DNA from: Candidatus Angelobacter sp.
GTDB taxonomy: Bacteria > Acidobacteriota > Terriglobia > Terriglobales > Acidobacteriaceae
Reading direction: 5' to 3'
Assembly (NCBI GenBank): GCA_035939495.1
Contig: DASZFU010000022.1
Coordinates: 1 to 32,000 of the forward strand
DNA: 32,000 nt
Program-made: the position numbers and the translations under genes
Shown here: positions 10,522 to 32,000 of the stretch, one piece after another
How the letters are laid out: every line of letters begins with the position of its first letter
How positions within the stretch are numbered: the first letter of the stretch is position 1
The notes under the pieces: generated by a model
What the model saw: the letters and a program-made list of their open reading frames with translations, nothing else
Told to the model about the DNA's origin: nothing
The model's database searches: none

Positions 10522-11133
10522 ATGAGTTGGAATGATCCCGCGAAAGAAGATACTACGATTTATAAGGTCGTGGTAAATCTTGAAGAGCAATATTCGATTT
10601 GGCCGGACTACAAGGATCTTCCCTTGGGATGGAAATATACTGGCAAGACTGGTGCCAAAGCTGAATGTTTGGCGTATATCAAAGAAGTATGGACTGATAT
10701 GAGGCCTCTCAGCCTAAGGCAGAAGATGGAAGAATTCGCCAAGAATCCGCCGCCCCCTCCTCCGTCTCTGGATCCCAATGCGCCTCGAAGTAAGAGTTTG
10801 GTCGACTGTCTGTGTGAAGGGGAGCACCCAGTAGAAGTCGCCATGCGGCCCGAACGGACATATAAGCTCTTCAAAGAGGCAATTGACCGCGACTACATTC
10901 ACATCAAGTTCACCCAGACCAAGGGAGGGACCGAGCTGGGGTTCCGCTTGGATCGGAATGCCTCAGATTTCAGCCGTGCGGATTTCGAGAGTGGAAAGGG
11001 TACCGTTCACGTCGAAGGCAACTTAACCCTCGATTACGTGAAAGTCAAATGTGTAGCAGATATAGATTTGAGCAGCTTGCAAGGCGAGGGACATCTGGCA
11101 AAGGTTGAAGCTGCAGAAATGTCGACGGCCTAG
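10522..11133 (+). CDS. MbtH-like domain protein fused via a poly-Pro linker to a ~115-aa C-terminal domain of unknown function
   Basis: The N-terminal 70 aa carry the MbtH signature ([52 protein letters not shown]). The linker is [15 protein letters not shown] cannot assign the C-terminal domain ([41 protein letters not shown]...). GGAGA lies 4 nt upstream of the ATG. Confidence 0.85.
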
Positions 11134-15683: not shown

Positions 15684-18116
15684 CTACTCGTACCTCAGCG
15701 CCACCATCGGATCTACCTTGGTGGCTGCGCGGGCGGGAACATAGCTCGCTGCCAGAGCGACGATCGCCAGCAGAACCGTGATTGCTGCAAAGATCGTCGG
15801 ATCCCAGGAAGCGACGCCAAACAGCAGGCTGCGCATCAGGTTTGCGACCAGCAATGCCGCGGCAATGCCAATCAACAGTCCCGGCACGATCAGGCGGACT
15901 CCTTGTGCCAGCACCATCTGCAGCACGTTTTTGCGCTGCGCGCCCAGGGCCATGCGTATGCCGATTTCCTGCGTGCGCTGGCTTACTGAATAGGCAACAA
16001 GTCCGTAGAGGCCGACCGTTCCTAACAGCAGTGCCAGGAATGCGAACGTGCCGGCCAGCACTGCAGGATAGCGGTGCAGAAACGCCGCCGGCGAACGCCG
16101 GATGCGGTCTTCCATCGTTTGTACTTCAAAGACGACGGCATCGGGATCAACCTGCCGGATGGCATTCTGCACCTGAGCGACCAGCGCATCCGGATGCGTT
16201 TCTGTGCGCACAATCAGGTTGAAGAACAAACGCGGTTGGGCTTCTTGTGGCGTATAGATGGCGGGGCGCGCGGGCACGTCCAGAGGCCCTTCTTTGATGT
16301 CGCGTATCACGCCGATCACCTGTCTCGGTTTTTCCTGGGTTGAATAAGTGAACCATATTTGCTGTTTGAGCGGGTCCAGGCCGGGCATGAACCTGTCAGC
16401 CAGCGTTTTGTTGATAATGACTCGCTGCGGGCCGGTGGCGTTGTCAGCCTCGGTAAACCAGCTTCCCTGCAGCAGCTCGACGCCCAGAGTCTGAAAATAT
16501 GTCCGGCTGACCGTCCGGCTGTTGGCTTCGCGTCCCTGCGGTGTTTCTGAGGGCAGGCCGACTACGCGGAGATTACTGGTATTGCCTCCGCCCGAGACCG
16601 GAAGAACGCTGCTGCTTCCCACCGACTTGACTCCGGGCAGCGCGTGTATGCGGTCCACCAAGTCCCGATAAGCCTGGAACTGTTGGGCGTCCTGTGGGAA
16701 GCGCGATTGGGACATCCCGACTCCCATCCCAAGCAGATTATGCTGATCAAATCCAGGATTGACGTTGAGCAACTGGAAGAGGCTCTTCACCAGCAGGCCT
16801 GAGCCTGCGAGCAGCACCATGGCTACGGCTACTTCTCCGATCACCAGGGCGGAAGCAAAGCGACGCCATGATCCTGAATGCGAGCTGCGCGAGCCCTCCT
16901 TCAGCCCGGCTTGCAGGTTTGCTCCCGCAGCCTGGAAGGCGGGCGCCAGCGCAAACATCACTCCGGTGATCACCGCCAGCAGAAAAGCAAAAAGGAGCAC
17001 GCTCACGTCAATGCTCATGTGCTTGAGATAGGGCATCGCGTCCAACTGGCGCGCTGGAATCATGCTGACGAAACCCTTGACCATCCAATGGGCCAGCAGC
17101 AGACCGAGCGTAGCGCCGGTCAAAGAGATGATCAGCCCTTCACTCAGCAACAGGCGTACCAGCCGAGCGCGGCTGGCGCCCAGGGCCGTGCGGATGGCCA
17201 TCTCGCCGCGCCGGGCCATGGCGCGCACCAGCAGCAGATTGGCGACGTTGGCGCAGGCAATGAGAAGCAGGAGCGCCACTGCCCCAAACAGCATAACCAG
17301 GATCGGCTTGATCTTTCCGACAATCACCTCGTTGAGTGGAACAACGACAGATCTCAGTTTGTCATTCGACTGCGGATACTGTTTCTCCAGGCGTTCAGCG
17401 ATCACGTTCATTGCCGCTGCGGCACTCTCGCGAGAAATGCCAGTCTTCAACCGGCCGACCACTTCCAGCCAATGGAGATTTCTGCGTTCCAGCAGTTGGC
17501 CGGTTGCGTGCAGCGTCACCCACACGTCAGGATCGCCTACAGGAGCAAAATGGAAATTCGCAGGCAATACGCCAACGATCGTATTGGGCTGGTCGTCGAT
17601 GTTCAGCACCTGGCCAATCACGTCTTTGCCGCCAAACCGCTGTTGCCACCAGCCATAGCTCAGCATGATGGTGCGGGGAGCCGTGGCCAGATCTTCGCCG
17701 GACCGGAAGTCCCGCCCCGAGATTGGCCGCACTCCCAGGGTTTCGAAAAAATTGTCGGTCACGGCCGCGGAAGGCAGCAGTTCCGGTGATCTCTCGCCCC
17801 GCAGCAGTACCTGGTTTCGCCCGTATGCGGCCAGCCCCTCAAACACCTGTTGCTGCGCTCGCCAGTCAAGAAAATTCGGGTAAGAGGCCTCAAATTGTGT
17901 GAAAACCTCCGCCTGCCGCGTGTCATACACCTGCATCAGTCGCGATGAATCGCGGTAAGGCAAAGGACGTATCAACGCCGCATCCACAAAGGTGAAGATG
18001 GCGACGTTGGCGGCGATCCCCAGCACCAGCGTGATCAGTGCAATCAAGGTGAATCGCGGCGATTTAATCAGCGTGCGCAGTTCGTAGCGGAGGTCCTGCA
18101 GGATCGCTTCCATCAT
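15684..18116 (-). CDS. ADOP-type duplicated MacB/FtsX-like ABC permease (TIGR03434-like), no adjacent ATPase
   Basis: Canonical N-terminus MMEAILQDLRYELRTLIKSPRFTL and C-terminus KVDPMVALRYE. There are two FtsX-type 4-TM modules, each preceded by a large periplasmic domain. I start at the ATG at 18116 (AAGGAG 8 nt upstream) rather than at the 18188 ORF boundary. Confidence 0.9.
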   Translation of the reverse strand: MMEAILQDLRYELRTLIKSPRFTLIALITLVLGIAANVAIFTFVDAALIRPLPYRDSSRLMQVYDTRQAEVFTQFEASYPNFLDWRAQQQVFEGLAAYGRNQVLLRGERSPELLPSAAVTDNFFETLGVRPISGRDFRSGEDLATAPRTIMLSYGWWQQRFGGKDVIGQVLNIDDQPNTIVGVLPANFHFAPVGDPDVWVTLHATGQLLERRNLHWLEVVGRLKTGISRESAAAAMNVIAERLEKQYPQSNDKLRSVVVPLNEVIVGKIKPILVMLFGAVALLLLIACANVANLLLVRAMARRGEMAIRTALGASRARLVRLLLSEGLIISLTGATLGLLLAHWMVKGFVSMIPARQLDAMPYLKHMSIDVSVLLFAFLLAVITGVMFALAPAFQAAGANLQAGLKEGSRSSHSGSWRRFASALVIGEVAVAMVLLAGSGLLVKSLFQLLNVNPGFDQHNLLGMGVGMSQSRFPQDAQQFQAYRDLVDRIHALPGVKSVGSSSVLPVSGGGNTSNLRVVGLPSETPQGREANSRTVSRTYFQTLGVELLQGSWFTEADNATGPQRVIINKTLADRFMPGLDPLKQQIWFTYSTQEKPRQVIGVIRDIKEGPLDVPARPAIYTPQEAQPRLFFNLIVRTETHPDALVAQVQNAIRQVDPDAVVFEVQTMEDRIRRSPAAFLHRYPAVLAGTFAFLALLLGTVGLYGLVAYSVSQRTQEIGIRMALGAQRKNVLQMVLAQGVRLIVPGLLIGIAAALLVANLMRSLLFGVASWDPTIFAAITVLLAIVALAASYVPARAATKVDPMVALRYE

Positions 18117-18384: not shown

Positions 18385-20355
18385 TCATTTGCTGGTTGCA
18401 GTTTGTTGGGCTACCGTGTCATGTTCAAACAAGCGGTATCGAACGCCGATGCGGGCGTAAATTCCCGGATTGGGAAATCCAAGGAACTCATGATACCGGC
18501 GATTCAGCAGATTATCGATCACTACATAGGTCGAGAGCTTTTTCGACATTTCATAGCTCAGTACGGCGTTGGTCGTGGAAAAGCCTCCGACAGAATCAAT
18601 GAACGGCGCAGGAACCTGAAAATCGAAGCGGCGGCCCATCCAGCGCGTGTTGGCCTGCGCGTGTAGTTTGTGCGTAACTGCACAGTCTGCGGAAATACCA
18701 CCTTCCCAATGGGGAACGTCACGCAACGGTTCCCTGGTGCCAAAGAGCTTCCAGTCAAGATAAGCGAGGTCCCCGCTCAATCGAAGCCGCGAATGCAGGA
18801 TGGAACTGAGAAAAAACTCCGCGCCTTGTGTATGCGCATTGCTGCGATTTACCAGCTTGAATCCGGTGGCGCTGAAGTCGATCAGGTCAGTCAGCGAATT
18901 CCAGAAGTAAGTGACGGAGGCGCGGGCGTGCATGCGTTCAAATTTCTGCTCGATGCCGAGATCGTAGCTTGCGCTACGCTCCGGCCGGAGCGCCGGATTG
19001 CCAACACTAGGATCGCCTAGCGCAAACATCGACGGGAGTTTGTAGGCTGAAGCCCAACTCGTCTTTAAGGTCGTTTTCGAACCAAACATCCTGATGTTGG
19101 CGCCCAATCTGGTAGCAGGATGCGCATTGAACCCCGCGCTCTTGTTCACTCCTGTTCCGGCAGTCGCCGTCAAGCGGCCCGACGCAAACACAATTTCTCC
19201 ATCGCCCTCAAAGGCCGGGCGGTCTAAATGGAATCGCGAAGGAAACCTGCCGGCCAACAGATCATTGTTGGTTCCATTTTCGTCGATGAAACCAAAATTG
19301 AGCCGCCCTGACAACTTGGAGGTAAATAAGAACTGGTTGGAAAACCGGGCCTGGGTGCGGCGAAACTCCGCGGTCTCTTCCTGCGAAGGCAATGACTTGA
19401 ATGATGGATGAACCTTGTCAAGCACTGCGGGAATTGAAGCTCTGGCTTCCCGCTGGAAGTAGTTCGCGTCCAGGCTATAGAGCCAGAGATGTTCAACCTG
19501 GTGATGAAATTCCGTGTCGATGGCAATTCCGGTGGAATGCTGGCGTTGCGGAATTCGCAGAATCGAAAGATCCGGCCCGCCGCCGTTTTCAGGAAACGAC
19601 GAATCCTGATCGCGCTGATAACGGGCATGAGCGAGCACGACTTTGTTGGATTCAATTTCATGCCTGAAATCTGCGGCCACCGTAGCCAGCGAAAACTCGT
19701 CGGACAGCACCTGTTGGGAAAGGTTCAGATATGAAGCGGCCAGTCCGTAGCTGCTGTGCCGGCTGTTGCCTCGCAAATCGACTCCCAGCCTGCCGGTGCC
19801 AAAGTTCCCGCCTTCAATATCCAGCACGCCACTGGGTTTGGCTGTCTCAGTTCGGGAGACGATATTGATCACTCCACTTACCGCTTCCGACCCGTAGATG
19901 GACGAAAGCGGCCCCCGCATGATCTCGACGCGTTCTATGTTATCGGTGCTGATGCTGGAAAGATCAACCGAGCCGCCCAGCACGTTGCTGATGTCGTTGA
20001 CGGGAGTACCGTCGACCAGAATCAGGGTGAAGTTAGGTTTGCCTCCGCGAATCGTGCCCGAGGCCAGGCTTCCACGGCTGCCATTCTGTGCTACATGCAG
20101 GAAAGGAACATCACGCAACAAATCGGCGAAATCCGATGCATGTTTCTGCTCAATTTCCTCGCGGGTCAGCACTACCAGCGAGGCTGAAGAAGCAGATTCC
20201 GGCACTCCTTCGCCTGTGACCTCAATGACAACCGGCGGCGCCTCCGGCGCAATAGCCGGAGCCGTGCCTGAAGTCTGAGCGTTCGCGGCGAGAGTCGCCA
20301 GCAACACGAGCAAACCAAGCAATCCAATTGCGGTTGGAAAATAGTTGCGTCGCAA
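18385..20355 (-). CDS. TonB-dependent outer-membrane receptor (small, BtuB-sized, 656 aa)
   Basis: Signal peptide (LLGLLVLLATLAANAQ). The plug region reads DLLRDVPFLHVAQNGSRGSLASGTIRGG...IERVEIMRGPLSSIYGSEAVSGVINIVSR. The beta-barrel C-terminus reads GIYARIGVRYRLF. It uses a TTG start, 12 nt after the upstream stop. Confidence 0.9.
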   Translation of the reverse strand: MRRNYFPTAIGLLGLLVLLATLAANAQTSGTAPAIAPEAPPVVIEVTGEGVPESASSASLVVLTREEIEQKHASDFADLLRDVPFLHVAQNGSRGSLASGTIRGGKPNFTLILVDGTPVNDISNVLGGSVDLSSISTDNIERVEIMRGPLSSIYGSEAVSGVINIVSRTETAKPSGVLDIEGGNFGTGRLGVDLRGNSRHSSYGLAASYLNLSQQVLSDEFSLATVAADFRHEIESNKVVLAHARYQRDQDSSFPENGGGPDLSILRIPQRQHSTGIAIDTEFHHQVEHLWLYSLDANYFQREARASIPAVLDKVHPSFKSLPSQEETAEFRRTQARFSNQFLFTSKLSGRLNFGFIDENGTNNDLLAGRFPSRFHLDRPAFEGDGEIVFASGRLTATAGTGVNKSAGFNAHPATRLGANIRMFGSKTTLKTSWASAYKLPSMFALGDPSVGNPALRPERSASYDLGIEQKFERMHARASVTYFWNSLTDLIDFSATGFKLVNRSNAHTQGAEFFLSSILHSRLRLSGDLAYLDWKLFGTREPLRDVPHWEGGISADCAVTHKLHAQANTRWMGRRFDFQVPAPFIDSVGGFSTTNAVLSYEMSKKLSTYVVIDNLLNRRYHEFLGFPNPGIYARIGVRYRLFEHDTVAQQTATSK

Positions 20356-20367
20356 GGGCCTGTACCA

Positions 20368-21423
20368 CTATGCCGGCATACCGCCGGAGGTGTCTACATA
20401 TTCGTAGCTTGGGCCGACGGTAAGACCACCGCCAGTCCCGGCGTCTGTCTCCATAAGCGATACGGCGAAAACGCGGAGGTCGTACATCATCCCGATCGCG
20501 GCGTTGAGCTGCTGCGCGTGGCCATTGAATGTCTCGTGCAGCGAATTCAATAGTGTCGAGTAGCTGTAGGCGAATCGTTCGATACGGGTTCGCGCCTGCG
20601 TCCCTTGTGGAAAATCGGCGATCTTGCAGTTGGCCTTCAGGGGCCAGACACCCGCTGGATCGAAAAGTACGGCTTCACCCGCGTAGGCAAACCCGGTTGG
20701 TGTACGGACGATGCGGCGCCCATTCGCGATTTCGCCGAACTTATAGTAGTGCGCTGGGTCGTGCGCTGACTGGAATGGTGACGTCGCAGTACCCTCGCCT
20801 TCCGTCTTGATGATCTCGATGGCCTTGCACGCGCTCTCCGGGCCGGTGATGGGGAAAAGCTTAGAGGGCGGAAACCAGTGATGGTTGATCACCTGCGGCG
20901 GAGCGGTTTTCTTCACGAAGATCGACGGCCCCAACTCCAGAATCTGTTTCTCGATCGCATCGTAGAACTGGCCAATGGTGGCGTACGAGGGCTCCGCGGC
21001 TGCGCGAGCGAGCAGCGGCGGCTGGATATGGATCGGATCCTCTGGTTCCTCGATGGCCATGAAGGTGTCTTCGACGAGCGGAATCGAAAAGGCCTCGATG
21101 CCGACGATCAGGTCGCCGATGCTCATCGGCAACGGTCCGGGATAGTCCGGCACGAAGCCCTTCTTGTTGATCTCGGGCGTACCACCGATCGCGATGAGGA
21201 TATTGGCGGCAATCGTCATGTGCAGCATCTCTTCCACCACGATGGAGCGGATGAGCGCCGCGATCGTATGATTCACGCCCGGCTTAAGCGAGAACATCGC
21301 GGTGAGGTAGGGCGGAATAGTGCTGTGCTCCAGCTTGACGGCTGCCTGGAGGTATCTGTGCAGTTCGGCGGGCGAGCTGGCCGAGCGGATTTCGGTGAGG
21401 ATCTGCGGGTCGAGCTTGATCAT
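20368..21423 (-). CDS. Ferritin-like (four-helix-bundle, ExxH) protein; resembles the PF12902 / VioB-N-terminal-type family
   Basis: Motifs AAVKLEHSTIPPYLTAMFSL, SIVVEEMLHMTIAANILIAIGGTP and DPAHYYKFGEI. No signal peptide. Its ATG overlaps the upstream stop (ATGA at 21420-21423). The family name is recalled from memory, not searched. Confidence 0.75.
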   Translation of the reverse strand: MIKLDPQILTEIRSASSPAELHRYLQAAVKLEHSTIPPYLTAMFSLKPGVNHTIAALIRSIVVEEMLHMTIAANILIAIGGTPEINKKGFVPDYPGPLPMSIGDLIVGIEAFSIPLVEDTFMAIEEPEDPIHIQPPLLARAAAEPSYATIGQFYDAIEKQILELGPSIFVKKTAPPQVINHHWFPPSKLFPITGPESACKAIEIIKTEGEGTATSPFQSAHDPAHYYKFGEIANGRRIVRTPTGFAYAGEAVLFDPAGVWPLKANCKIADFPQGTQARTRIERFAYSYSTLLNSLHETFNGHAQQLNAAIGMMYDLRVFAVSLMETDAGTGGGLTVGPSYEYVDTSGGMPA

Positions 21424-23318
21424 TCGGAAGAGCCTTTCTGTCGGAGGGGAGCAATTCTGCCGCGCTTCTCCAGGTTGAGGAGGACAGCGGTCTTGCCCGC
21501 GGCCTGCTCTGGCAAAACTTCCGGGATCGAGGCGGCTGCTGCTTCGTCCACGGCGGAGGGAGGCGTCACCTCAGGCGATTGCGACGGCGTACCCAGCGGT
21601 GGAAGGCCGTCCGGCCCTCGTGTGCCGAACCATTTGAGGATGGTGGCACGATCACCGGCGCCGAGATCACGCGTTACAGGCATGTGATTGGGGTCTTCGA
21701 TGGGCAGCGAGAAGGCAAGCTCCAGGATACGGATGCGTTGCACCACGTCGTGATAATCGCTCAGGTTCACCACGTAGCGTCCCATGATGGGGTAAAGGTT
21801 ACCGAATTGTGTGAAGAGCTGCTGAATGTCGCGATACCAGGTAGGCGTCTCTGGCGGCTCTTTCTTGCTGTAGGCAAGGATGCTGATATAGTTCATCGGA
21901 TTGGAGACGTAGCCCGCAGGCTGCGATGCCAACTGGTATCCGATTCCGTAGAGCTGGCTACTAAGATAGCCGCGCGGCATTCCAGGGCCTTCAGGAGACG
22001 CGGTAATCGCCACGCTCGCATGGCCCTTGTCGTTGGCCGTCACACTGGTGGGCCACTGCACGGCATGGGCCGGCGTCGCGATATCCGGGATAGCCGCGGT
22101 CGGGCGCGTCACAGGCGAGACGGTAGCGCCGCCGCCGGAGCCGCCCATAAAACCCTGGGTAGCGCTCAGGCTGATCGTGGCTTTGGAAATCGGCACACCG
22201 AAACGGTCGGCGTAAAACTCGATGTGTTGTGTTTGGCCGGGATCGATGCGATAGACGAAATTGTCAGCGCGCACGTATTGGCCGTCGATGGATTCCTGCA
22301 GGCGCACGGTATAGCCACCCGCAGCGGCGGGCGAAACCACGACCAGCGGGTTGGCCGTGATCAGTTGGCGCGCTTGGGCGTTGCCCGCGAGATCGAAATC
22401 CATCACGCCGGCAGTCCGGCTATACCAGCCATCGGTAAGATACGGCACTTCCCCGATGATGACCAGCTGATCGGCGGTGACGGCCGATAGGGCTGCGGAC
22501 GGATTGGTGGTCAACACACCGAGGTAGATCTGGCCGACATTCTGGAGGCCAATGTTAGCGGTTTCGATCGGGAAGCTATTCCCAAAATCCGCAGTAACAG
22601 TATTGCCGTCGCCTGAGACCTTGGCCTGCATGTTGCCCATGCCGCCGGACGGCACCGGCCAGTTTCCGCTGAAGATGAATTGCCGGCCGCGAACGAATTG
22701 TTTGGGCTCGCCCTGAAAGTATGGGCCGATCGTGCCCACCACATGTCCCATTGTGTAGCGAGGAATCGTGCTGTCGCGGCCGTAGCCGAAGAGATTGAAG
22801 TCGATCGAGAGCTGGTCGTCCTGCGTGACGGATTTCAGCGACTGGAGGAGAGGAAAGCGTGAGATGTCAAACCACTGCACGCCCTCGAGCACCGATTGAT
22901 AGGCCGCCGCCAGTTTCTGGTCCATGGGCACGCCCTTCTGCTGGCGCAGCCACAGATTGATGAACACGGCAGGCTTGAATTCACCCTGCACCAGGGTCTT
23001 GCCCGCGCCGTCGACCAAACGAATCTGCATGCCCCATATCTGCGAGACCATTTGCTGCTGCGGGTCGAGATCGACCAGCTTACCGGGCGCGCGCTCGGCG
23101 GCGTTCTGAACCGTAATGCCGTCGAGAGAGGTCACCGCGCAATCGAGAAAGCGGAAAACACCAGTGCCTTCCGGATTCCAACTGCCATTCTGGTTAAGCT
23201 GCTGATACTCGGGCACGAACGATGCGTTCTGGTAGAAGCGGACATCATTGTTAATGGTCGAGACATCGGCCTGAAACCAGCCGCGGAAATGCAGACGAGG
23301 CGAATCGAGATAGCTCAT
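21420..23318 (-). CDS. Large conserved-looking protein of unknown function (632 aa), first gene of the operon
   Basis: Uninterrupted 632-codon ORF with protein-like composition. The N-terminus is MSYLDSPRLHFRGWFQADVSTINNDVRFYQN. No signal peptide or TM segment. The C-terminal tail is Pro/Ala-rich. No catalytic motif recognised. Confidence 0.8.
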   Translation of the reverse strand: MSYLDSPRLHFRGWFQADVSTINNDVRFYQNASFVPEYQQLNQNGSWNPEGTGVFRFLDCAVTSLDGITVQNAAERAPGKLVDLDPQQQMVSQIWGMQIRLVDGAGKTLVQGEFKPAVFINLWLRQQKGVPMDQKLAAAYQSVLEGVQWFDISRFPLLQSLKSVTQDDQLSIDFNLFGYGRDSTIPRYTMGHVVGTIGPYFQGEPKQFVRGRQFIFSGNWPVPSGGMGNMQAKVSGDGNTVTADFGNSFPIETANIGLQNVGQIYLGVLTTNPSAALSAVTADQLVIIGEVPYLTDGWYSRTAGVMDFDLAGNAQARQLITANPLVVVSPAAAGGYTVRLQESIDGQYVRADNFVYRIDPGQTQHIEFYADRFGVPISKATISLSATQGFMGGSGGGATVSPVTRPTAAIPDIATPAHAVQWPTSVTANDKGHASVAITASPEGPGMPRGYLSSQLYGIGYQLASQPAGYVSNPMNYISILAYSKKEPPETPTWYRDIQQLFTQFGNLYPIMGRYVVNLSDYHDVVQRIRILELAFSLPIEDPNHMPVTRDLGAGDRATILKWFGTRGPDGLPPLGTPSQSPEVTPPSAVDEAAAASIPEVLPEQAAGKTAVLLNLEKRGRIAPLRQKGSSE

Positions 23319-23525
23319 GAGTTAGTTAGCTAAAACTCTGGAAAGCATACGTGATGTGTGAAAGGTTAACAATATTTTTTAACGTCGGCGATATTTGGGA
23401 CGGCGGTGGTATCCGAGGATGGGCTTGGCCGTCTTCATGTCCAAGATAAAACTTTTAAAAGTGAGCAATATTGAACAGTTTGGCTGCCCGCAGAAACATT
23501 ACTATTTCATTTTTGGAACTTGTCT

Positions 23526-23981
23526 ATGGATAGAAACCAATTGGCATCTGGCGCGAAGCTTCCTAATGGTCATGGTATGCTTCTCTGTATTGACGATGAT
23601 ATTATCATTCTCGAGGTGCTAAAGGCCGTTCTTGAAAGATATGGCTATTCCGTTATCGCCACCTCCGGTGGCCCTCAAGGGTTGACGATTCTCGCCGAGT
23701 ATGCGATTGATCTGGTGATCCTCGACTGGGAAATGCCTGAAATGAATGGGCACGAAACTGCATCGGAGATCAGACGAATGAAACCAGAAATGCCTATTAT
23801 TATCAGTTCGGGATCTCAAATGCCAGAGGACACGTTCAAAATAGCAGACGCTTTTGTCCCCAAGGGAATCGAGTTCGAAGTTCTCTTGACGGCGATATCC
23901 GATCTCCTTGGCCGGGCGGCGACTGAAGGGCTGCTCGCACCAGAAAAGACAAAAGCAGCGCATCAAGAACGCTTTTCGTAA
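23526..23981 (+). CDS. Stand-alone CheY-like response-regulator receiver protein
   Basis: The receiver signature is complete: LLCIDDD (acidic pocket), DLVILDWEMPEMNG (phospho-acceptor Asp), IIISSGS, and AFVPKG (conserved Lys). There is no output domain. Confidence 0.8.
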   Translation: MDRNQLASGAKLPNGHGMLLCIDDDIIILEVLKAVLERYGYSVIATSGGPQGLTILAEYAIDLVILDWEMPEMNGHETASEIRRMKPEMPIIISSGSQMPEDTFKIADAFVPKGIEFEVLLTAISDLLGRAATEGLLAPEKTKAAHQERFS

Positions 23982-23983
23982 GC

Positions 23984-24679
23984 ATGACACAGGCAAGACA
24001 TCTCGCTTTCCCGGCGAAACGAATTTCCGCAAAGAAAATACCGCCTTTTGATCCCAATGAGTTTCTAGCACATGCCGGTGTGGGTAGGACGATTGTGGTT
24101 CTGAAAAAGAAGCAGATTATCTTTTCGCAAGGAGACGCGGCAGAAGAGGTCTTCTATATCCAGCTCGGCAGGGTCAGGCTCACGGTGCTCTCCTCCAGTG
24201 GAAAGGAAGCCACCATCGCCTTGCTGGGCGCCGGAGACTTCCTGGGCGAGGAGTGTGTCGCGAACTCCTATGCGTTGCGCATGAGCACCGCCACGGCCAT
24301 TACTGAGGGAACGGTACTCAAGATCGACAGAAAAGAGATGATGCGTGCCCTTCGTGAGCAACATGCCCTCTCCCACCTTTTCGTTTCTTATCTGCTAGCC
24401 CGTAATGCCCGCATTCAGGAAGATCTCGTGGACCAGCTTTTCAACTCTGGTGAAAAGCGCCTGGCCCGCGCCTTGTTGCTGCTCGCCCAGTTCGGCAAGG
24501 ACAACACATCGGAGGCGGTGATTCCCAAAATTAGCCAGGAAACACTGGCAGAGATGGTGGGAACAACCCGTTCCCGGGTGAACTTCTTTATGAATCGCTT
24601 CCGCAAATTGGGGTTTATCAGATACAACGGCGGCGTAACTGTGCACAGCTCCCTGCTGAACATCATCCTCCACGAGTGA
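23984..24679 (+). CDS. Crp/Fnr-family transcriptional regulator
   Basis: cNMP-binding beta-roll (IFSQGDAAEEVFYIQLGRVRLTVLSSSGKEATIALLGAGDFLGE) plus a C-terminal HTH (ISQETLAEMVGTTRSRVNFFMNRFRKLGFI). There is no N-terminal Cys cluster of the FNR type. It starts 2 nt after the receiver gene stop. Confidence 0.85.
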   Translation: MTQARHLAFPAKRISAKKIPPFDPNEFLAHAGVGRTIVVLKKKQIIFSQGDAAEEVFYIQLGRVRLTVLSSSGKEATIALLGAGDFLGEECVANSYALRMSTATAITEGTVLKIDRKEMMRALREQHALSHLFVSYLLARNARIQEDLVDQLFNSGEKRLARALLLLAQFGKDNTSEAVIPKISQETLAEMVGTTRSRVNFFMNRFRKLGFIRYNGGVTVHSSLLNIILHE

Positions 24680-24761: not shown

Positions 24762-24854
24762 GACTTTTGTCCTCAAGAAAGCGATCATTGCGGCTGAGGA
24801 TGCTGGAATTGATGTGAAATAAAGGTCGTAGAAAACCCAGGAAGGTCGTTCGCC

Positions 24855-25224
24855 ATGCAAGAAGAGAAACAGGCCCCTGTTGTCCTCGTTGTCGAAGATC
24901 AACCTCAAATCCTGGCCTTGCTTGAAGAGTTTATCAGTGACCTTGGTTTTGGAGTCTTAACCGACCAAAGTGGTGCGACCGCAGAAAAAATATCTGCCAG
25001 TAACCCTAACGTCATAGACTTGCTAATCACGGACATTGAGATGCCCGGCGTGGACGGGGGCACAAAAACTTAGAACCCAAAGACCGAGTCTCCACGTCAT
25101 CTATTTGTCGGGTTCTCTGTAAAGTGTACATTACGGCCAGGACGCATTTGTGGTAGGGAGTATTTGTTTAGAAAAGCCGGTCAGCTTCAAGGAACTCACA
25201 TCTGCTATTTCACGAAGCCTTTAA
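24855..25224 (+). pseudogene. Decayed response-regulator receiver gene (frameshift + in-frame stop)
   Basis: Frame 1 reads VVLVVEDQPQILALLEE...DLLITDIEMPGVDG and then stops. The receiver continues in the +1 frame after a G5 run (25056-25060) as AQKLRTQRPSLHVIYLSGSL. That is interrupted by TAA at 25120-25122, then continues SVHYGQDAFVVGSICLEKPVSFKELTSAISRSL to 25224. Confidence 0.7.
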
Positions 25225-25578
25225 TTTCCCTTCGCCAAGAAAAGAACGAAGCGCCGCTTGCTCGTCGTCAAACACTTCGAACACGGTATAGAGCTTGGTG
25301 ATCTGCAAGAGGCCGTGAACCTTTTGTCCCAGGTTCAGGAGTTTAAGATCTCCTCCCTCTCTGCGCGCTGCGGTAAAAGCGCTGACCAGTTCCCCGAGAC
25401 CGGAGCTGTCTATGTAGGGCACAGCCTGCAGGTTGAGCAGGATTTTTTTGTGCCCCGTAGAGATCAAGGCGCGAACCTGTTCCCGCAGGATAACCGTGCC
25501 TTCGCCGAGTGTCAGTCGCCCATTTATGTCGAGAATGATTGCGCCATCTTTTTGCCGGGGATTGATTTTTATACTCAT
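25210..25578 (-). CDS. STAS-domain anti-sigma-factor antagonist (SpoIIAA/RsbV-like)
   Basis: From the ATG at 25578 the product reads MSIKINPRQKDGAIILDINGRLTLGEG...LLNLQAVPYIDSSGLGELVSAF...LQITKLYTVFEVFDDEQAAL. It contains the canonical DSSGLG phospho-serine motif. The upstream 116 codons of ORF 25210..25926 are low-complexity and are rejected. Confidence 0.8.
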   Translation of the reverse strand: MSIKINPRQKDGAIILDINGRLTLGEGTVILREQVRALISTGHKKILLNLQAVPYIDSSGLGELVSAFTAARREGGDLKLLNLGQKVHGLLQITKLYTVFEVFDDEQAALRSFLGEGKLKAS

Positions 25579-25896
25579 AAACTGATTCTGCCATTGGAGC
25601 AATGATCGAGTCTGTATAGAAGTGAACAATTTTGCCGTTAACAGATGGGGGCTACCCAATCGATTCCGCGAGCTCCGTGCTTCCGCAGCCAACCGGATTG
25701 TATTTTGTTTATTGAATCGTTTGATAAAAGAAGGTATATTCAAAGACCTTCCGGGTTCGAACGCCGAGATCCCTGCCAAACCGGGCTTGCCGGAACCTCG
25801 CCGCAGTTCTTGCTCTCTTTGACGAATCGGACCGCTTCCGCGACGGCGGAGCTGTCCTCTGTTTGAAGACCCAAAAACCAAAGGAGACTCCCCCAG

Positions 25897-27594
25897 ATGA
25901 GAAGCACATCGAAAACTACTTTTCACATCGCAGTTGTTGTCTTTCTTACCGTGGCGGCAGCGTTAGCGCAAAGTATTCCTGCCTGGCAACCCAATACTAC
26001 CTACGCCACTGGAGCATTGGTGACATTCAATGGACAGGAATTCAAATGCCTTCAAGGCCACACATCACAGGTGGGTTGGGAACCGCCCAATGTTCCGGCG
26101 CTTTGGCAGCCCGTGAACACTGGCTCGCCGGATTTTTCACTATCCGCCACACCAGCATCGCAGTCCGTGACCTCAGGCAACAGCACAAGCTATACGATCT
26201 CGGTCGCTTCACTGAATGGCTTCAATGGGACTGTGTCGCTGAGCGTGACTGGCGCACCCAGCGGAGCGACCGCCAACTTCAGTCCGTCGTCAATCAACCA
26301 ATCCGGATCGTCGACCCTGAATGTTTCCACCGTCAGTTCAATCCCCGCGGGCAGCTTCACTCTGACTGTTACCGGTACAAGCGGCAGTCTAAGCCATGCG
26401 GCCAGTCTGACGCTCAACCTGGGTAGCGTGACCAGCCCGGGTGCAACCTCTGGAAACGTGCGCTTCCATCTGTTACTGGGCGTGGGTAATGCGCAAGACT
26501 CTTTGACTTTGGATGGCGGCAATTTCACCGACCTGATCATGTCCAACATGATTGCAGGTGTGATGTATGGCCATCTTATCCAGGAGTACGCTCCTGTTCC
26601 CGGTATCCAGTTCAACAAAGACTATCTTTATGGATCGATCATGGCCCAGTTGTTGCAAGAGAACATTGTCACCCAAGAATACCAATCGAGCAGCAACCTG
26701 CTTGATCCGGGGGCTGATCAGCAGGCGGTAATGGGAACGGGCCAGGGCGGGCCGTATCAAATCAACAACTATGCTGTAGACCTGGTTTCTGGCGGCACTG
26801 CGCCGACCGGTCATTCGCTCATCAATTACATTGCAATCCAGAAAAACATCGGCTACACCATGGCTGCGGCGTCCAGTCAATTCCAGAAGCCGACGCCACC
26901 CTCGTTCAACAACAAGTTTTACGGGCCAATGCTGCCGGCATTCTTCCACTACAACGATATGGTAGCGTTGAATGTAATCGGCAAGGGGCCAGGGGCATTT
27001 ACGACTCCTTGGCAACCGCAATATGACCAGGCGCTGGCGAACTTCACCAACCTGCCAAACAGTTTCCTTGATGTGATACTGAACGTCGCTTATAACCAGG
27101 GTTATTACGGAGGATTAGTCTCCCAATACAGCACACGCGGCGTCACGGCAACGGCGTCTACCGTAGCTTCCGTAAATTCGTACAGCTCGATTTGGGGTAA
27201 TACCAGCACCTTTGCGCAGTATCCCTACCAGGTGCATTACTACCTGGATCAGATGTATGACAATCCAATACCAACCACCAGCCCAACCACGCTGGTCACG
27301 CCGGCCAATCACATCATCTTCAGCATGACCACATTGGAAAATATCTTTTCCAGCGTATTCCAGATGCTTGATTTCTCCAATGGGTCAAACCCGGCGCAGT
27401 TCTTCACGGCGGCCCAGGCGCAAGCGGCCTTCAATTCGGCCCTGGCTCAGCATGGCGTTGCCGGTACAGCCACGCTTGATCTGAGCAATGCTACCCAGCG
27501 GGCAACGATCTTTGCGGTGATCGATAGCGCGGTCGGCAATCTTGAAACTGCGGTGGGCATGAAGTTCAACGCCACCACCAACTCGCAACTTTAA
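25897..27594 (+). CDS. Secreted multidomain protein: CBM5/12-like chitin-binding module + Ig-like domain + ~385-aa C-terminal domain with lysozyme/SLT-like motif triad
   Basis: Signal peptide (IAVVVFLTVAAALAQS). CBM5/12 pattern AWQPNTTYATGALVTFNGQEFKCLQGHTSQVGWEPPNVPALWQPV. A Ser/Thr-rich Ig-like module spans aa 78-176. The C-terminal domain has ordered motifs QEYQSS, GGPYQIN and VAYNQGYYG. AAGGAG lies 10 nt upstream of the ATG. Confidence 0.8.
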   Translation: MRSTSKTTFHIAVVVFLTVAAALAQSIPAWQPNTTYATGALVTFNGQEFKCLQGHTSQVGWEPPNVPALWQPVNTGSPDFSLSATPASQSVTSGNSTSYTISVASLNGFNGTVSLSVTGAPSGATANFSPSSINQSGSSTLNVSTVSSIPAGSFTLTVTGTSGSLSHAASLTLNLGSVTSPGATSGNVRFHLLLGVGNAQDSLTLDGGNFTDLIMSNMIAGVMYGHLIQEYAPVPGIQFNKDYLYGSIMAQLLQENIVTQEYQSSSNLLDPGADQQAVMGTGQGGPYQINNYAVDLVSGGTAPTGHSLINYIAIQKNIGYTMAAASSQFQKPTPPSFNNKFYGPMLPAFFHYNDMVALNVIGKGPGAFTTPWQPQYDQALANFTNLPNSFLDVILNVAYNQGYYGGLVSQYSTRGVTATASTVASVNSYSSIWGNTSTFAQYPYQVHYYLDQMYDNPIPTTSPTTLVTPANHIIFSMTTLENIFSSVFQMLDFSNGSNPAQFFTAAQAQAAFNSALAQHGVAGTATLDLSNATQRATIFAVIDSAVGNLETAVGMKFNATTNSQL

Positions 27595-31839: not shown

Positions 31840-32000
31840 AACGTAAAAGGTTTAGAAAGAAAGACACAGTACACAAATGCGTGGTTACCTCGCCTGGATT
31901 GCGATTTTAGGAAATGCGCAATCTAAGGCCAACGGGCTAGACCTATTATAATGTTTCAAAATCGCTCCTCGTCCGGACCTGCTTAAGACAACATTTATCT

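Follow-up and report, generated by a model that had tools for sequence, protein, structure and literature searches.

A run of three tightly packed genes in a 32,000-nt stretch of Candidatus Angelobacter DNA (the window) raises the question of what a large protein without a Pfam match (A), a ferritin-like protein (B), and a TonB-dependent receptor (TBDR) would do together. The original prediction was of a cytoplasmic, metal-dependent pair, one member of it an orphan, served by a dedicated receptor; this stood as regards the pairing of A with B and the PF12902 assignment, and fell as regards the orphan status of A and the dedication of the receptor. All three genes are co-directional on the (-) strand in the open reading frame (ORF) list, and gene calls made independently by JGI on the parent contig give the identical three genes. 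The locus and its flanks comprise the following features:

15684-18116, (-) strand: MacB/FtsX-type ABC permease (Pfam; JGI call of 810 aa), context only
18385-20355, (-) strand: TonB-dependent outer-membrane receptor, 656 aa, TTG start, BtuB/CirA size class
20356-20367, (-) strand: 12-nt spacer, tggtacaggccc, between the end of B (GCATAG) and the TTG start of the receptor
20368-21423, (-) strand: gene B, 351 aa, ATG start (ORF list, PF12902)
21420-21423, (-) strand: ATGA stop/start overlap, shared by the ATG of B and the TGA of A, within GAATGATC
21420-23318, (-) strand: gene A, 632 aa, ATG start (ORF list)
23319-23519, no strand assigned: intergenic stretch (promoter region) separating the divergent A and receiver genes, with one imperfect palindrome at 23458-23481
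23520-23981 and 23984-24679, (+) strand: CheY-like receiver and Crp/Fnr-family regulator (Pfam), divergent, context only

The predicted operon layout, in which an ATGA overlap joins A to B and 12 nt separate B from the receptor, could be read directly in the sequence, the overlap indicating that A and B are translationally coupled. Inspection of the N-termini agreed with a signal peptide on the receptor and none on A or B, and ORFs and Pfam matches placed the receiver and Crp/Fnr genes divergently about 200 bp upstream of A, as expected. Only the identical and the 96% relatives have this regulatory pair beside A; it is absent at the other loci. The 23319-23519 region showed no convincing match to a sigma-70, Fur, or Fnr consensus, and its promoter-like sites were no more numerous than in shuffled sequence. 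The permease lies ~270 nt downstream of the receptor in the same orientation, and its homologues occur near A-B only at loci L003 and L013.

B scored 218.8 bits on PF12902, where the cutoff is 22.3 (E 1.1e-64), and its residues 25-233 covered positions 1-220 of the 221 in the profile; this confirmed its assignment as a ferritin-like ExxH protein, and all of the motifs quoted for it were present (LEHSTIPPYL at 31-40, VVEEMLHM at 62-69, and AHYYKFGEI at 224-232). The fold had been placed at the N-terminus of VioB; it lies instead at the C-terminus, at residues ~595-937. Using hhalign, the B family aligned with VioB over B15-344 and VioB595-937 (Prob 99.8, E 2.1e-27), BLASTP against the VioB C-terminal region gave an E of 4e-8, and a conserved C-terminal extension of ~130 aa in B is common to VioB enzymes. 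Candidate cofactor ligands are E32, E65, M66, H68, E125, E210, and H225, a Glu / Glu-Met-x-His / Glu / Glu / His set resembling that of bacterioferritin; these columns are ~100% conserved in both the B and VioB families, and the metal-ligand set presupposed by the prediction appears intact. By these profile comparisons, B is a homologue of the C-terminal half of VioB, with a predicted ferritin-like four-helix bundle fold.

A, for which the Pfam scan returned no match, is not the orphan it was taken for. Its close homologues number in the hundreds and its family comprises at least 1,732 clusters (representatives) at 50% identity, with homology to the known VioB/StaD/RebD enzymes detected by both hhalign and HMM searches. 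The alignment of the A family with real VioB/CPAS proteins spanned 540 colinear columns, pairing A1-574 with VioB1-585 (Prob 99.0, E 9.7e-18). In HMMER, the A-family HMM matched 83 of 83 real VioB/CPAS proteins and none of 166 controls, with its best scores falling on actinobacterial and cyanobacterial CPAS-like proteins (E down to 5e-22). BLASTP of A against VioB gave a colinear N-terminal HSP (44% identity over 39 aa), and the conserved N-terminal motif of A reads S-x-L-D-x-P-R-x-H-F-x-G. The NCBIfam VioB model produced partial matches in the correct order on A-B; for the VioB equivalog TIGR04492, A scored 12.3 bits and B 12.7 bits, both far under the cutoff of 1250. An AF2 model of A was mostly beta (pTM 0.75), and no conserved His, Cys, or Tyr heme ligand was identified in it. 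Judged by its alignments and predicted structure, A is an end-to-end, multi-beta-sandwich homologue of the N-terminal half (~585 residues) of VioB/StaD/RebD.

The two genes travel together. In ~43 of 59 genome loci, drawn from at least seven phyla, B is the next gene downstream of A, and the two adjoin in every locus with enough sequence, except in one distant subfamily. Among the 59 A-B pairs examined, 33 overlap, 18 are separated by gaps of at most 40 nt, and 6 are fused, so that coupling recurs in 57 of 59 and the A-to-B arrangement is far from chance. Fused A-B proteins of ~900-1000 aa occur in several lineages, and PF12902 sits C-terminal to the A region in all nine long representatives. 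This strong co-conservation, the translational coupling, and the natural fusions support the predicted cytoplasmic, probably metal-dependent functional pair, and the family has no characterized member, in line with its description as poorly characterized. In many genomes A-B stands alone among housekeeping genes. Such a solitary position is unusual for a secondary-metabolite enzyme.

Because A and B match VioB 1-585 and 595-937, respectively, and share its ligands, we propose, with a probability of roughly 60%, that they form the two subunits of a split, distant VioB/StaD-superfamily enzyme that would oxidize alpha-imino or alpha-keto acids. Heme enzymes of this superfamily join two imino-acid molecules derived from tryptophan, VioB in violacein and StaD in staurosporine synthesis. 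VioB dimerizes the IPA imine, contains heme b, and has catalase activity, and its structure is unsolved (PMC9705886); RebD and StaD are heme-dependent oxidases (PMC3640393). A and B (632 + 351 aa) are colinear with the ~1000-aa VioB (iminophenyl-pyruvate dimer synthase, TIGR04492), from an N-terminal MSxLDxPRxHFxG through many invariant Gly, Arg, and Pro positions to a C-terminal PF12902 domain with an identical E / EEMxH / E / GEG / H set. However, they are only ~20-25% identical to VioB and are split into two genes, and the window has no vioA, C, D, or E near A-B when compared with the genuine locus L074. The chromopyrrolic-acid synthases of indolocarbazole pathways (StaD, RebD, AtmD, and InkD) belong to the same superfamily and are heme-dependent oxidases that act after an L-amino-acid oxidase, but they are single chains of 1050-1140 aa, and their clusters include StaO/RebO, P450, and glycosylation genes, all of which are missing here. 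The one-polypeptide form of the superfamily (~1000-1140 aa) is likewise replaced in the window by two genes with a 4-nt overlap. Given the low identity and the far-below-cutoff equivalog scores, the A-B reaction could differ substantially from that of VioB; moreover, a genuine VioB and an A-B pair can coexist in one genome, which argues that their functions differ. The A-B substrate is probably not that of VioB.

We envisage a cytoplasmic, VioB-like heteromer of A and B, in which A would be a beta-sandwich scaffold whose conserved Arg-rich surfaces hold carboxylate substrates and B would contain the cofactor for redox chemistry, which may be heme b (reported in VioB, RebD, and StaD), a di-iron site, or both. 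The complex could then oxidatively couple, or otherwise oxidize, alpha-imino or alpha-keto acids, yielding a small aromatic compound that is dicarboxylated. Since no such oxidase is encoded nearby, the substrate would not be a tryptophan imine from a dedicated VioA, and general metabolism or a gene at another location would have to supply the imine or keto acid. Neither the window nor ~10 kb beyond it contains PF01593, LodA, VioC-like, VioCDE, amino-acid oxidase, or P450 genes, and no amino-acid oxidase, VioCDE, or P450 partner recurs in most A-B loci. Individual loci do have oxidases: Hymenobacter has the order VioA-type PF01593 amine oxidase-A-B, with LodA/LodB a few genes beyond, LodA/LodB are also close to A-B in a Rickettsiales MAG, and in Chromobacterium PF12902 genes adjoin LodA-type oxidases. 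PF12902 genes also lie beside LodA-type oxidases in fungi (PMC4417212).

A second recurrent context is the ebo gene cluster. A-B is the immediate same-strand neighbor of ebo genes in at least eight genera of Bacteroidota, Pseudomonadota, and Cyanobacteriota, with gene orders such as A-B-eboD-E-C-A-B-F in Mycetohabitans, A-B-eboABCDEF in Aureibacter, and TatD-DHQS-A-B in Gloeothece, and it also abuts ebo in Chromobacterium (4 loci), Undibacterium (3 loci), and Pedobacter (2 loci). In an alphaproteobacterial MAG and a Burkholderiaceae MAG, the neighborhood of A-B includes single ebo-type genes, TatD and/or UbiA. The ebo literature that we searched never mentions a ferritin-like or VioB-like neighbor, and the linkage appears to be previously undescribed. 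Known ebo/EDB clusters are associated with thallusin, with scytonemin precursor traffic, and with nematode repellence by P. fluorescens NZI7. EDB consists of six ebo genes and three unknown genes, and its expression in E. coli yields indole dimers, an output that a VioB-like enzyme might give. The early steps of scytonemin biosynthesis (ScyA/B/C and ebo) similarly combine a genetic link to ebo with a cytoplasmic enzyme that couples aromatic pyruvate-type precursors, but ScyA is ThDP-dependent and these enzymes are unrelated in sequence to A or B.

These neighbors allow A-B to be read as an accessory oxidase of the ebo pathway, a prenylated cyclitol/quinoline route tied to the iron-chelating signal thallusin, in which A-B would perform an oxidative tailoring or rearrangement and the receptor would import a metabolite that chelates metals; the ebo genes would then be at another genomic location. 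A preprint describes thallusin as a metal chelator and the oxidative rearrangement of saccharoquinoline as still lacking a known enzyme, and reviews report ebo in Acidobacteria; the same-strand linkage in several lineages also speaks for the idea. Yet no ebo gene is present in the 32-kb window or ~10 kb past its far end, ~75% of A-B loci have none nearby, and the preprint defines thallusin producers by eboB, C, E, and F and, like the ebo literature searched, does not mention A-B-type genes, and we consider this role quite unlikely. Highly improbable, in our assessment, is that B, with A for a structural partner, is instead a bacterioferritin-like handler of iron or heme (storage, ferroxidase, or heme sequestration) and serves TonB-dependent acquisition in place of small-molecule synthesis. 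The B profile does match 3hl1, a Caulobacter ferritin-like PF12902 protein (E 1.4e-23), and the bacterioferritins 9viw (1e-9) and 1nf4 (2e-5), with its EEMLH aligned onto DEMRH of 1nf4. Its Glu and Glu-Met-x-His fall on the bacterioferritin di-iron ligands and heme-Met position. A TBDR within the operon, Mn/metal transporters (MntP, TMEM165) recurrent near relatives, and the catalase activity of VioB point the same way. However, bacterioferritins form a 24-mer cage of ~160-aa subunits with an E/ExxH/E/ExxH pattern and an inter-subunit Met-heme, and B aligns with the first-half ligands and the Met position. At 351 aa, B is twice as long, has the VioB-type extension, spaces its second half as E125...E210...H225, and occurs obligately next to, or fused to, a 600-aa homologue of a biosynthetic enzyme. 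Amino-acid oxidases and biosynthetic ebo genes in the surroundings, and an upstream region without a Fur-box-like site, also argue against iron handling.

How far the unit extends beyond A and B depends on the receptor. It has Plug (3.1e-24) and TonB_dep_Rec_b-barrel (4.8e-24) matches in Pfam and, by inspection, an N-terminus that reads as a Sec signal peptide (MRRNYFPTAIGLLGLLVLLATLAANA, followed by QTSG) and a TonB-box-like PVVIEVTG, and thus combines the signal peptide, N-terminal plug, and barrel of a TBDR, a receptor type with a 22-strand barrel. Its PDB matches (BtuB, CirA, and FepA) lie mainly in the plug domain, and every NCBIfam match was under cutoff, with no substrate-specific model reached. 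It is probably co-transcribed with A-B, given the 12-nt spacing and the lack of a terminator-like site between B and the receptor, and the arrangement is the same in a 96%-identical relative. Nevertheless, the receptor is not a conserved partner as had been predicted: relatives of 80-81% identity do not have it, a TBDR adjoins A-B in only 5 of ~31 dereplicated loci, with varying position and orientation, and orthologue-like TBDRs lie near A-B in only ~6 other loci, in differing positions. We regard the link as weak and lineage-specific. A and B might even be the entire unit, with the receptor, ABC permease, and regulators as unrelated, tightly packed neighbors and no dedicated trafficking; the solitary A-B pairs would fit this reading, and since TBDR genes abound in these taxa, chance alone should place some of them beside A-B. 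We nonetheless judge it unlikely, as the spacing here implies co-transcription, an orthologue with 61% identity to the receptor precedes A by 20 nt in another Angelobacter MAG, suggesting a rearranged but retained adjacency, and Bryobacteraceae, Ramlibacter, Lysobacter, and a Rickettsiales MAG have receptors of the same TBDR cluster close to A-B. For the split VioB-superfamily enzyme, we therefore envisage that a BtuB-sized receptor was recruited into the A-B operon in the lineage of the window only; that it would import the (metal-bound) product, or iron or heme needed by the enzyme, is the most tentative step of the scheme.

Collectively, the A-B family is large, unstudied, and often found beside the ebo gene cluster. 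A broader reading, which we offer as a long shot, is that A-B proteins are widespread, unrecognized imino-acid-coupling oxidases that explain the indoles of EDB, and that the product in the window is a receptor-imported, metallophore-like aromatic. If so, the tryptophan-derived indole monomers and dimers of EDB would gain their catalyst in A-B, the three unknown EDB genes would be those for a secreted c4 protein, A, and B, and ebo clusters would handle the traffic of A-B enzyme products or cooperate with them. In Angelobacter, a dicarboxylated, metal-binding aromatic re-imported by the co-transcribed TBDR would belong to a new class of metallophore-like compounds that VioB-type chemistry produces.

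The original prediction placed three same-strand genes in one tightly coupled operon, and the ORF list agrees with it in coordinates, strands and sizes:

21420-23318, minus strand: A, 632 aa, no Pfam match
20368-21423, minus strand: B, 351 aa, PF12902 ferritin-like at 218.8 bits
18385-20355, minus strand: TonB-dependent receptor (TBDR), 656 aa, Pfam Plug plus barrel

As had been claimed, A stops and B starts within overlapping codons (GAATGATC), and the short spacer after B is also present, with 12 bases preceding the TTG start of the receptor. Independent JGI gene calls on the 116-kb parent soil-metagenome contig agree with the three genes. Among genomes with a name, MAGs of Candidatus Angelobacter and Bryobacteraceae, both Acidobacteriota, come nearest. 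The divergent neighbours of A encode a receiver domain and a Crp/Fnr regulator (Pfam). Scanning the operon and its upstream region for promoters, terminators and palindromes gave no signal above shuffled expectation and revealed no Fur- or Fnr-like box. Nearby, a 238-aa ORF at 25210-25926 (-) is probably over-extended, because JGI calls a 122-aa STAS-domain protein there, and a 72-aa receiver-domain gene lies at ~24850-25070 (+), between the Crp/Fnr and STAS genes. A 203-aa protein at 10522-11133 (+) joins an MbtH-like domain (E 3.6e-20) to a weak CBF_beta match, an unusual architecture with no NRPS adjacent inside the window.

A had been described as an orphan. We instead found several hundred homologues of ~650 aa with 57-96% identity, all unnamed and without a Pfam domain, in Acidobacteriota, Ramlibacter, Lysobacter and other taxa, and the orphan or novel-fold reading was rejected. 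Searches with A alone against Pfam, NCBIfam and PDB sequences gave no significant match; the only lead was the NCBIfam model of VioB, which, with StaD and RebD, acts in violacein and indolocarbazole synthesis. This model produced two very weak colinear hits (A 1-26 to VioB 1-26, and B 59-338 to VioB 671-936), a lead that required confirmation by profile methods. Profile-profile comparison of 36 A-family members with 23 VioB and chromopyrrolic-acid synthase (CPAS) sequences aligned A 1-574 to VioB 1-585 over 540 columns (probability 99.0%, E 9.7e-18). An independent HMM built from 122 diverse A-family representatives matched all 83 VioB/CPAS sequences, at E 5e-22 to 7e-4 for a database size of 1.8 billion sequences, and none of 166 shuffled or reversed controls. 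The VioB bait sequence was approximate (91% identical to P0121) and served for retrieval alone, with all comparisons made against the retrieved genuine VioB/CPAS. B aligned to VioB 596-931 by BLASTP (E 4e-8), and an alignment of 46 B-family members to VioB 595-937 (E 2.1e-27). Since A and B align to successive regions of VioB, their 632 and 351 residues are colinear with this ~1000-residue protein, and the ferritin-like fold, previously assigned to the N-terminus of VioB, is C-terminal.

A and VioB have in common an N-terminal S-x-L-D-x-P-R-x-H-F-x-G motif and the invariant positions R8, R76, R212, R550, E342 and M546-P547. The A-B pair falls outside the VioB equivalog and shows both domain-level features of the VioB/StaD/RebD superfamily. 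The structural check proposed for A gave a model (pTM 0.75) with mostly beta-sandwich domains and a helical C-terminal part, for which no informative solved neighbour was found; the PDB contains no VioB or StaD structure. Judged from sequence, A and B are an uncharacterised VioB/StaD/RebD-superfamily enzyme divided over two genes, which leaves the earlier interpretation of the locus partly right, in pairing A with B and in the ferritin-like assignment of B, and mistaken about the orphan status of A. Two further proteins of ~665 aa, P0201 and P0203, are 42-43% identical to the N-terminal 58% of genuine VioB alone, which shows that a split can occur among close relatives of VioB as well. The 623-aa P0204 is an intermediate sequence, matching both the VioB bait and A from the window.

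An exhaustive profile search placed 1,732 representatives at 50% identity in the A family, 680 of them at E<=1e-30; these clusters, more than 1,700 in number, come from soil and aquatic Acidobacteriota, Proteobacteria, Bacteroidota, Planctomycetota, Cyanobacteria and Actinomycetota. A genome scan yielded 59 loci from Acidobacteriota, Alpha-, Beta-, Gamma- and Deltaproteobacteria, Planctomycetota, Bacteroidota, Actinomycetota and Armatimonadota-like MAGs, and eight copies are carried on megaplasmids, in Mycetohabitans, Azospirillum, Gloeothece and Aureibacter. Nearly all pairs are annotated as "hypothetical protein" and "ferritin-like protein". Where A is at least 35% identical and enough sequence is available, B lies directly downstream in essentially every locus. 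The two genes overlap in 33 of the 59 pairs, mostly by the same ATGA, are separated by 0-40 nt in 18, and lie further apart in two. The remaining six are fused in one ORF (Undibacterium, Actinomycetota, Pyrinomonadaceae and Chromobacterium), one Chromobacterium fusion among them being a possible assembly artefact. The co-conservation of A and B, which the original prediction set as a check, is upheld by gene neighbourhoods, with 57/59 pairs overlapping, fused or no more than 40 nt apart, and the two genes are read as a single functional unit. In the exhaustive search, PF12902 was C-terminal to the A-like region in 9/9 representatives of 890-1070 aa; one A-B fusion among the representatives, P0283 (1068 aa), has a ricin-B lectin domain appended at its C-terminus. 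Ramlibacter loci (L005 10001-16358; L006 188-6566) contain a tandem duplication, A-B-glyoxalase-A'-B', whose second pair is only ~36-40% identical to the first.

A distant A subfamily (30-35% identity) in Pyrinomonadaceae was found without an adjacent B. At these loci (L048-L051 and L058), a 294-aa neighbour, e.g. L050 11785-12669 (-), starts with MLRLEFEGFF, which recalls the N-terminal motif of A and VioB, and the opposite strand encodes a long B-like protein of 487-560 aa. This arrangement may be another way to split the same enzyme. Upstream lie a large CarboxypepD_reg-type TBDR and a VTT/DedA protein.

The original assignment of B to PF12902 is secure, and the conserved residues of this family point to a candidate cofactor site. 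Columns invariant in VioB/CPAS and ~100% conserved in the B family include, in B numbering, E32 (VioB E612), E65-M66-x-H68 (VioB E672-M673-x-H675), N74, E125-x-P127 (VioB E728 and P730), Y154, G209-E210-G211 and H225. Among structures, the B-family profile matched the ferritin-like 3HL1 (E 1.4e-23) and the bacterioferritins 9viw (1e-9) and 1nf4 (2e-5); in the 1nf4 alignment, LEH of B falls on ELH, and EEMLH on DEMRH. In bacterioferritin structures, the aligned residues are the first di-iron Glu, followed by the Glu-x-x-His pair, with the Met between them the axial heme ligand. Iron storage was rejected as the main reading of B. From its sequence, B may bind heme or a di-iron centre, both being compatible. 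Bacterioferritin-type Met and di-iron ligands would offer a rationale for the heme b and catalase activity reported for VioB (PMC9705886) and for the heme dependence of RebD and StaD (PMC3640393).

The most striking recurrent context of A-B is the ebo operon (eboA-F). Mycetohabitans encodes A-B-eboD-eboE-eboC-eboA-eboB-eboF on one strand (RefSeq annotation), Aureibacter A-B-eboABCDEF, and Gloeothece TatD-DHQS-A-B. By clustering and Pfam, four Chromobacterium, three Undibacterium and two Pedobacter genomes carry the corresponding set (DHQS-like, TIM-barrel, UbiA, TatD and phosphodiesterase) next to A-B. The last gene of the Mycetohabitans array encodes a TMEM165/GDT1 Mn/Ca transporter (L070 20441-21022). 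The ebo genes have been tied to export of a scytonemin precursor (PMC6282210), to a cryptic cyclitol pathway (PMC12904256) and, in a 2026 preprint, to thallusin biosynthesis, one oxidative rearrangement of which is said there to lack an enzyme. The ebo-type EDB cluster of Pseudomonas is described as comprising six ebo genes and three unknown genes, some of the latter with signal peptides; when expressed in E. coli it gives rise to tryptophol, indole derivatives and novel indole dimers, products that reviewers found hard to ascribe to ebo enzymes. The Chromobacterium order c4-A-B-ebo, in which c4 is a secreted neighbour, would fit this description, and a VioB-like enzyme would explain EDB products derived from indole pyruvate. 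No Pseudomonas homologue occurs among the best 120 homologues of the Chromobacterium A protein. The ebo literature searched makes no mention of a ferritin-like or VioB-like neighbour, and the A-B/ebo linkage appears to be undescribed.

A census of 110 flanking genes at ~31 dereplicated loci revealed no universal third partner, the commonest families being TBDR Plug (5), TatD (4) and glyoxalase (3). The c4 family adjoins A-B in 17/75 loci. Its members, which are absent from the window, are secreted, Cys/Trp-rich proteins of ~320-370 aa with no Pfam match (L017 8929-9990; L015 1510-2541; L022 2251-3297; L073 11935-13053; others), 55-74% identical across Proteobacteria, Planctomycetota and Cyanobacteria. 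Immediately before A-B in Hymenobacter stands the gene of a VioA-family (PF01593) flavin amine oxidase, with LodA/LodB after the pair; LodA/LodB also occur near A-B in a Rickettsiales MAG. In Chromobacterium phragmitis (L074 12060-14997), a LodB-LodA-PF12902 trio, LodA being a quinoprotein amino-acid oxidase, lies directly downstream of genuine vioABCDE. Fungal lodA-like genes have PF12902 neighbours too (PMC4417212), and from these two settings stand-alone PF12902 proteins seem to associate repeatedly with amino-acid oxidases. Upstream of A-B, Candidatus Angelobacter MAGs encode a second B paralogue and, following it, a PQQ-type beta-propeller, an MntP manganese exporter and a GSDH/NHL propeller (L001 4714-9302; L010 2615-7952; also L046, L052 and L059); the propeller/MntP trio also flanks the distant A subfamily.

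The receptor had been proposed as dedicated to A-B, but by its distribution it is not a conserved partner. Together with a MacB permease and the receiver/Crp pair, it is syntenic only in identical and 96%-identical relatives, and it is absent from relatives at 80-81% identity, making the link lineage-specific and modestly supported. A 61%-identical receptor lies immediately upstream of A in another Angelobacter MAG, and related TBDRs occur near A-B in Bryobacteraceae, Ramlibacter, Lysobacter and a Rickettsiales MAG. The 12-nt spacing argues for co-transcription in the window, and the receptor is probably co-transcribed with A-B in this lineage, though not conserved. Specific NCBIfam models for its substrate all scored far below cutoffs, and in the PDB it chiefly resembles BtuB, CirA and FepA in their plug domain. 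The receiver/Crp pair and MacB permease were rejected as partners, not being conserved across loci. A link to NRPS, Trp-halogenase and HDO genes 12-17 kb away was also considered and set aside, with unrelated genes lying between. This region (L076 15238-20762 on the parent contig, ~3-9 kb past window position 32000 and 12-17 kb from A) encodes a Trp-halogenase-like flavoenzyme, a tRNA_bind protein, a heme-oxygenase-like (Haem_oxygenas_2) protein and an NRPS, and is probably a separate biosynthetic cluster.

We propose that A and B would form a cytoplasmic heteromer equivalent to VioB, with the redox cofactor in B, that acts on alpha-imino or alpha-keto acids by oxidative coupling or oxidation. 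The receptor might take the product back up or supply iron or heme, the weakest step of the proposal. No oxidase or ebo gene is present in the window or ~10 kb past its far end, the other end being the contig end. A-B frequently stands alone among housekeeping genes, and genuine VioB coexists with A-B in one genome (L024 and P0141). The missing dedicated oxidase, the stand-alone occurrence and the coexistence with VioB together suggest a substrate and product unlike those of the violacein and indolocarbazole pathways.

To our knowledge, VioB, StaD and RebD have been treated as rare single-chain enzymes confined to bisindole pigment and antibiotic clusters, and we know of no Pfam model for their N-terminal 600 residues. 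Kinship with VioB would give a very common orphan gene pair a testable chemistry, oxidative imino- or keto-acid coupling. For a family that has been refractory to structure determination, the split form provides two smaller subunits that can be handled separately. The bacterioferritin-like Met/di-iron site is a suggested seat of the reported heme and redox chemistry. Also revealed by the pair is a recurring genetic association with ebo/EDB clusters, for which both products and functions (thallusin, scytonemin export, indole-based nematode repellence) are under debate. The main significance lies in the size of the family, an A half without any annotation, and the undescribed ebo linkage.
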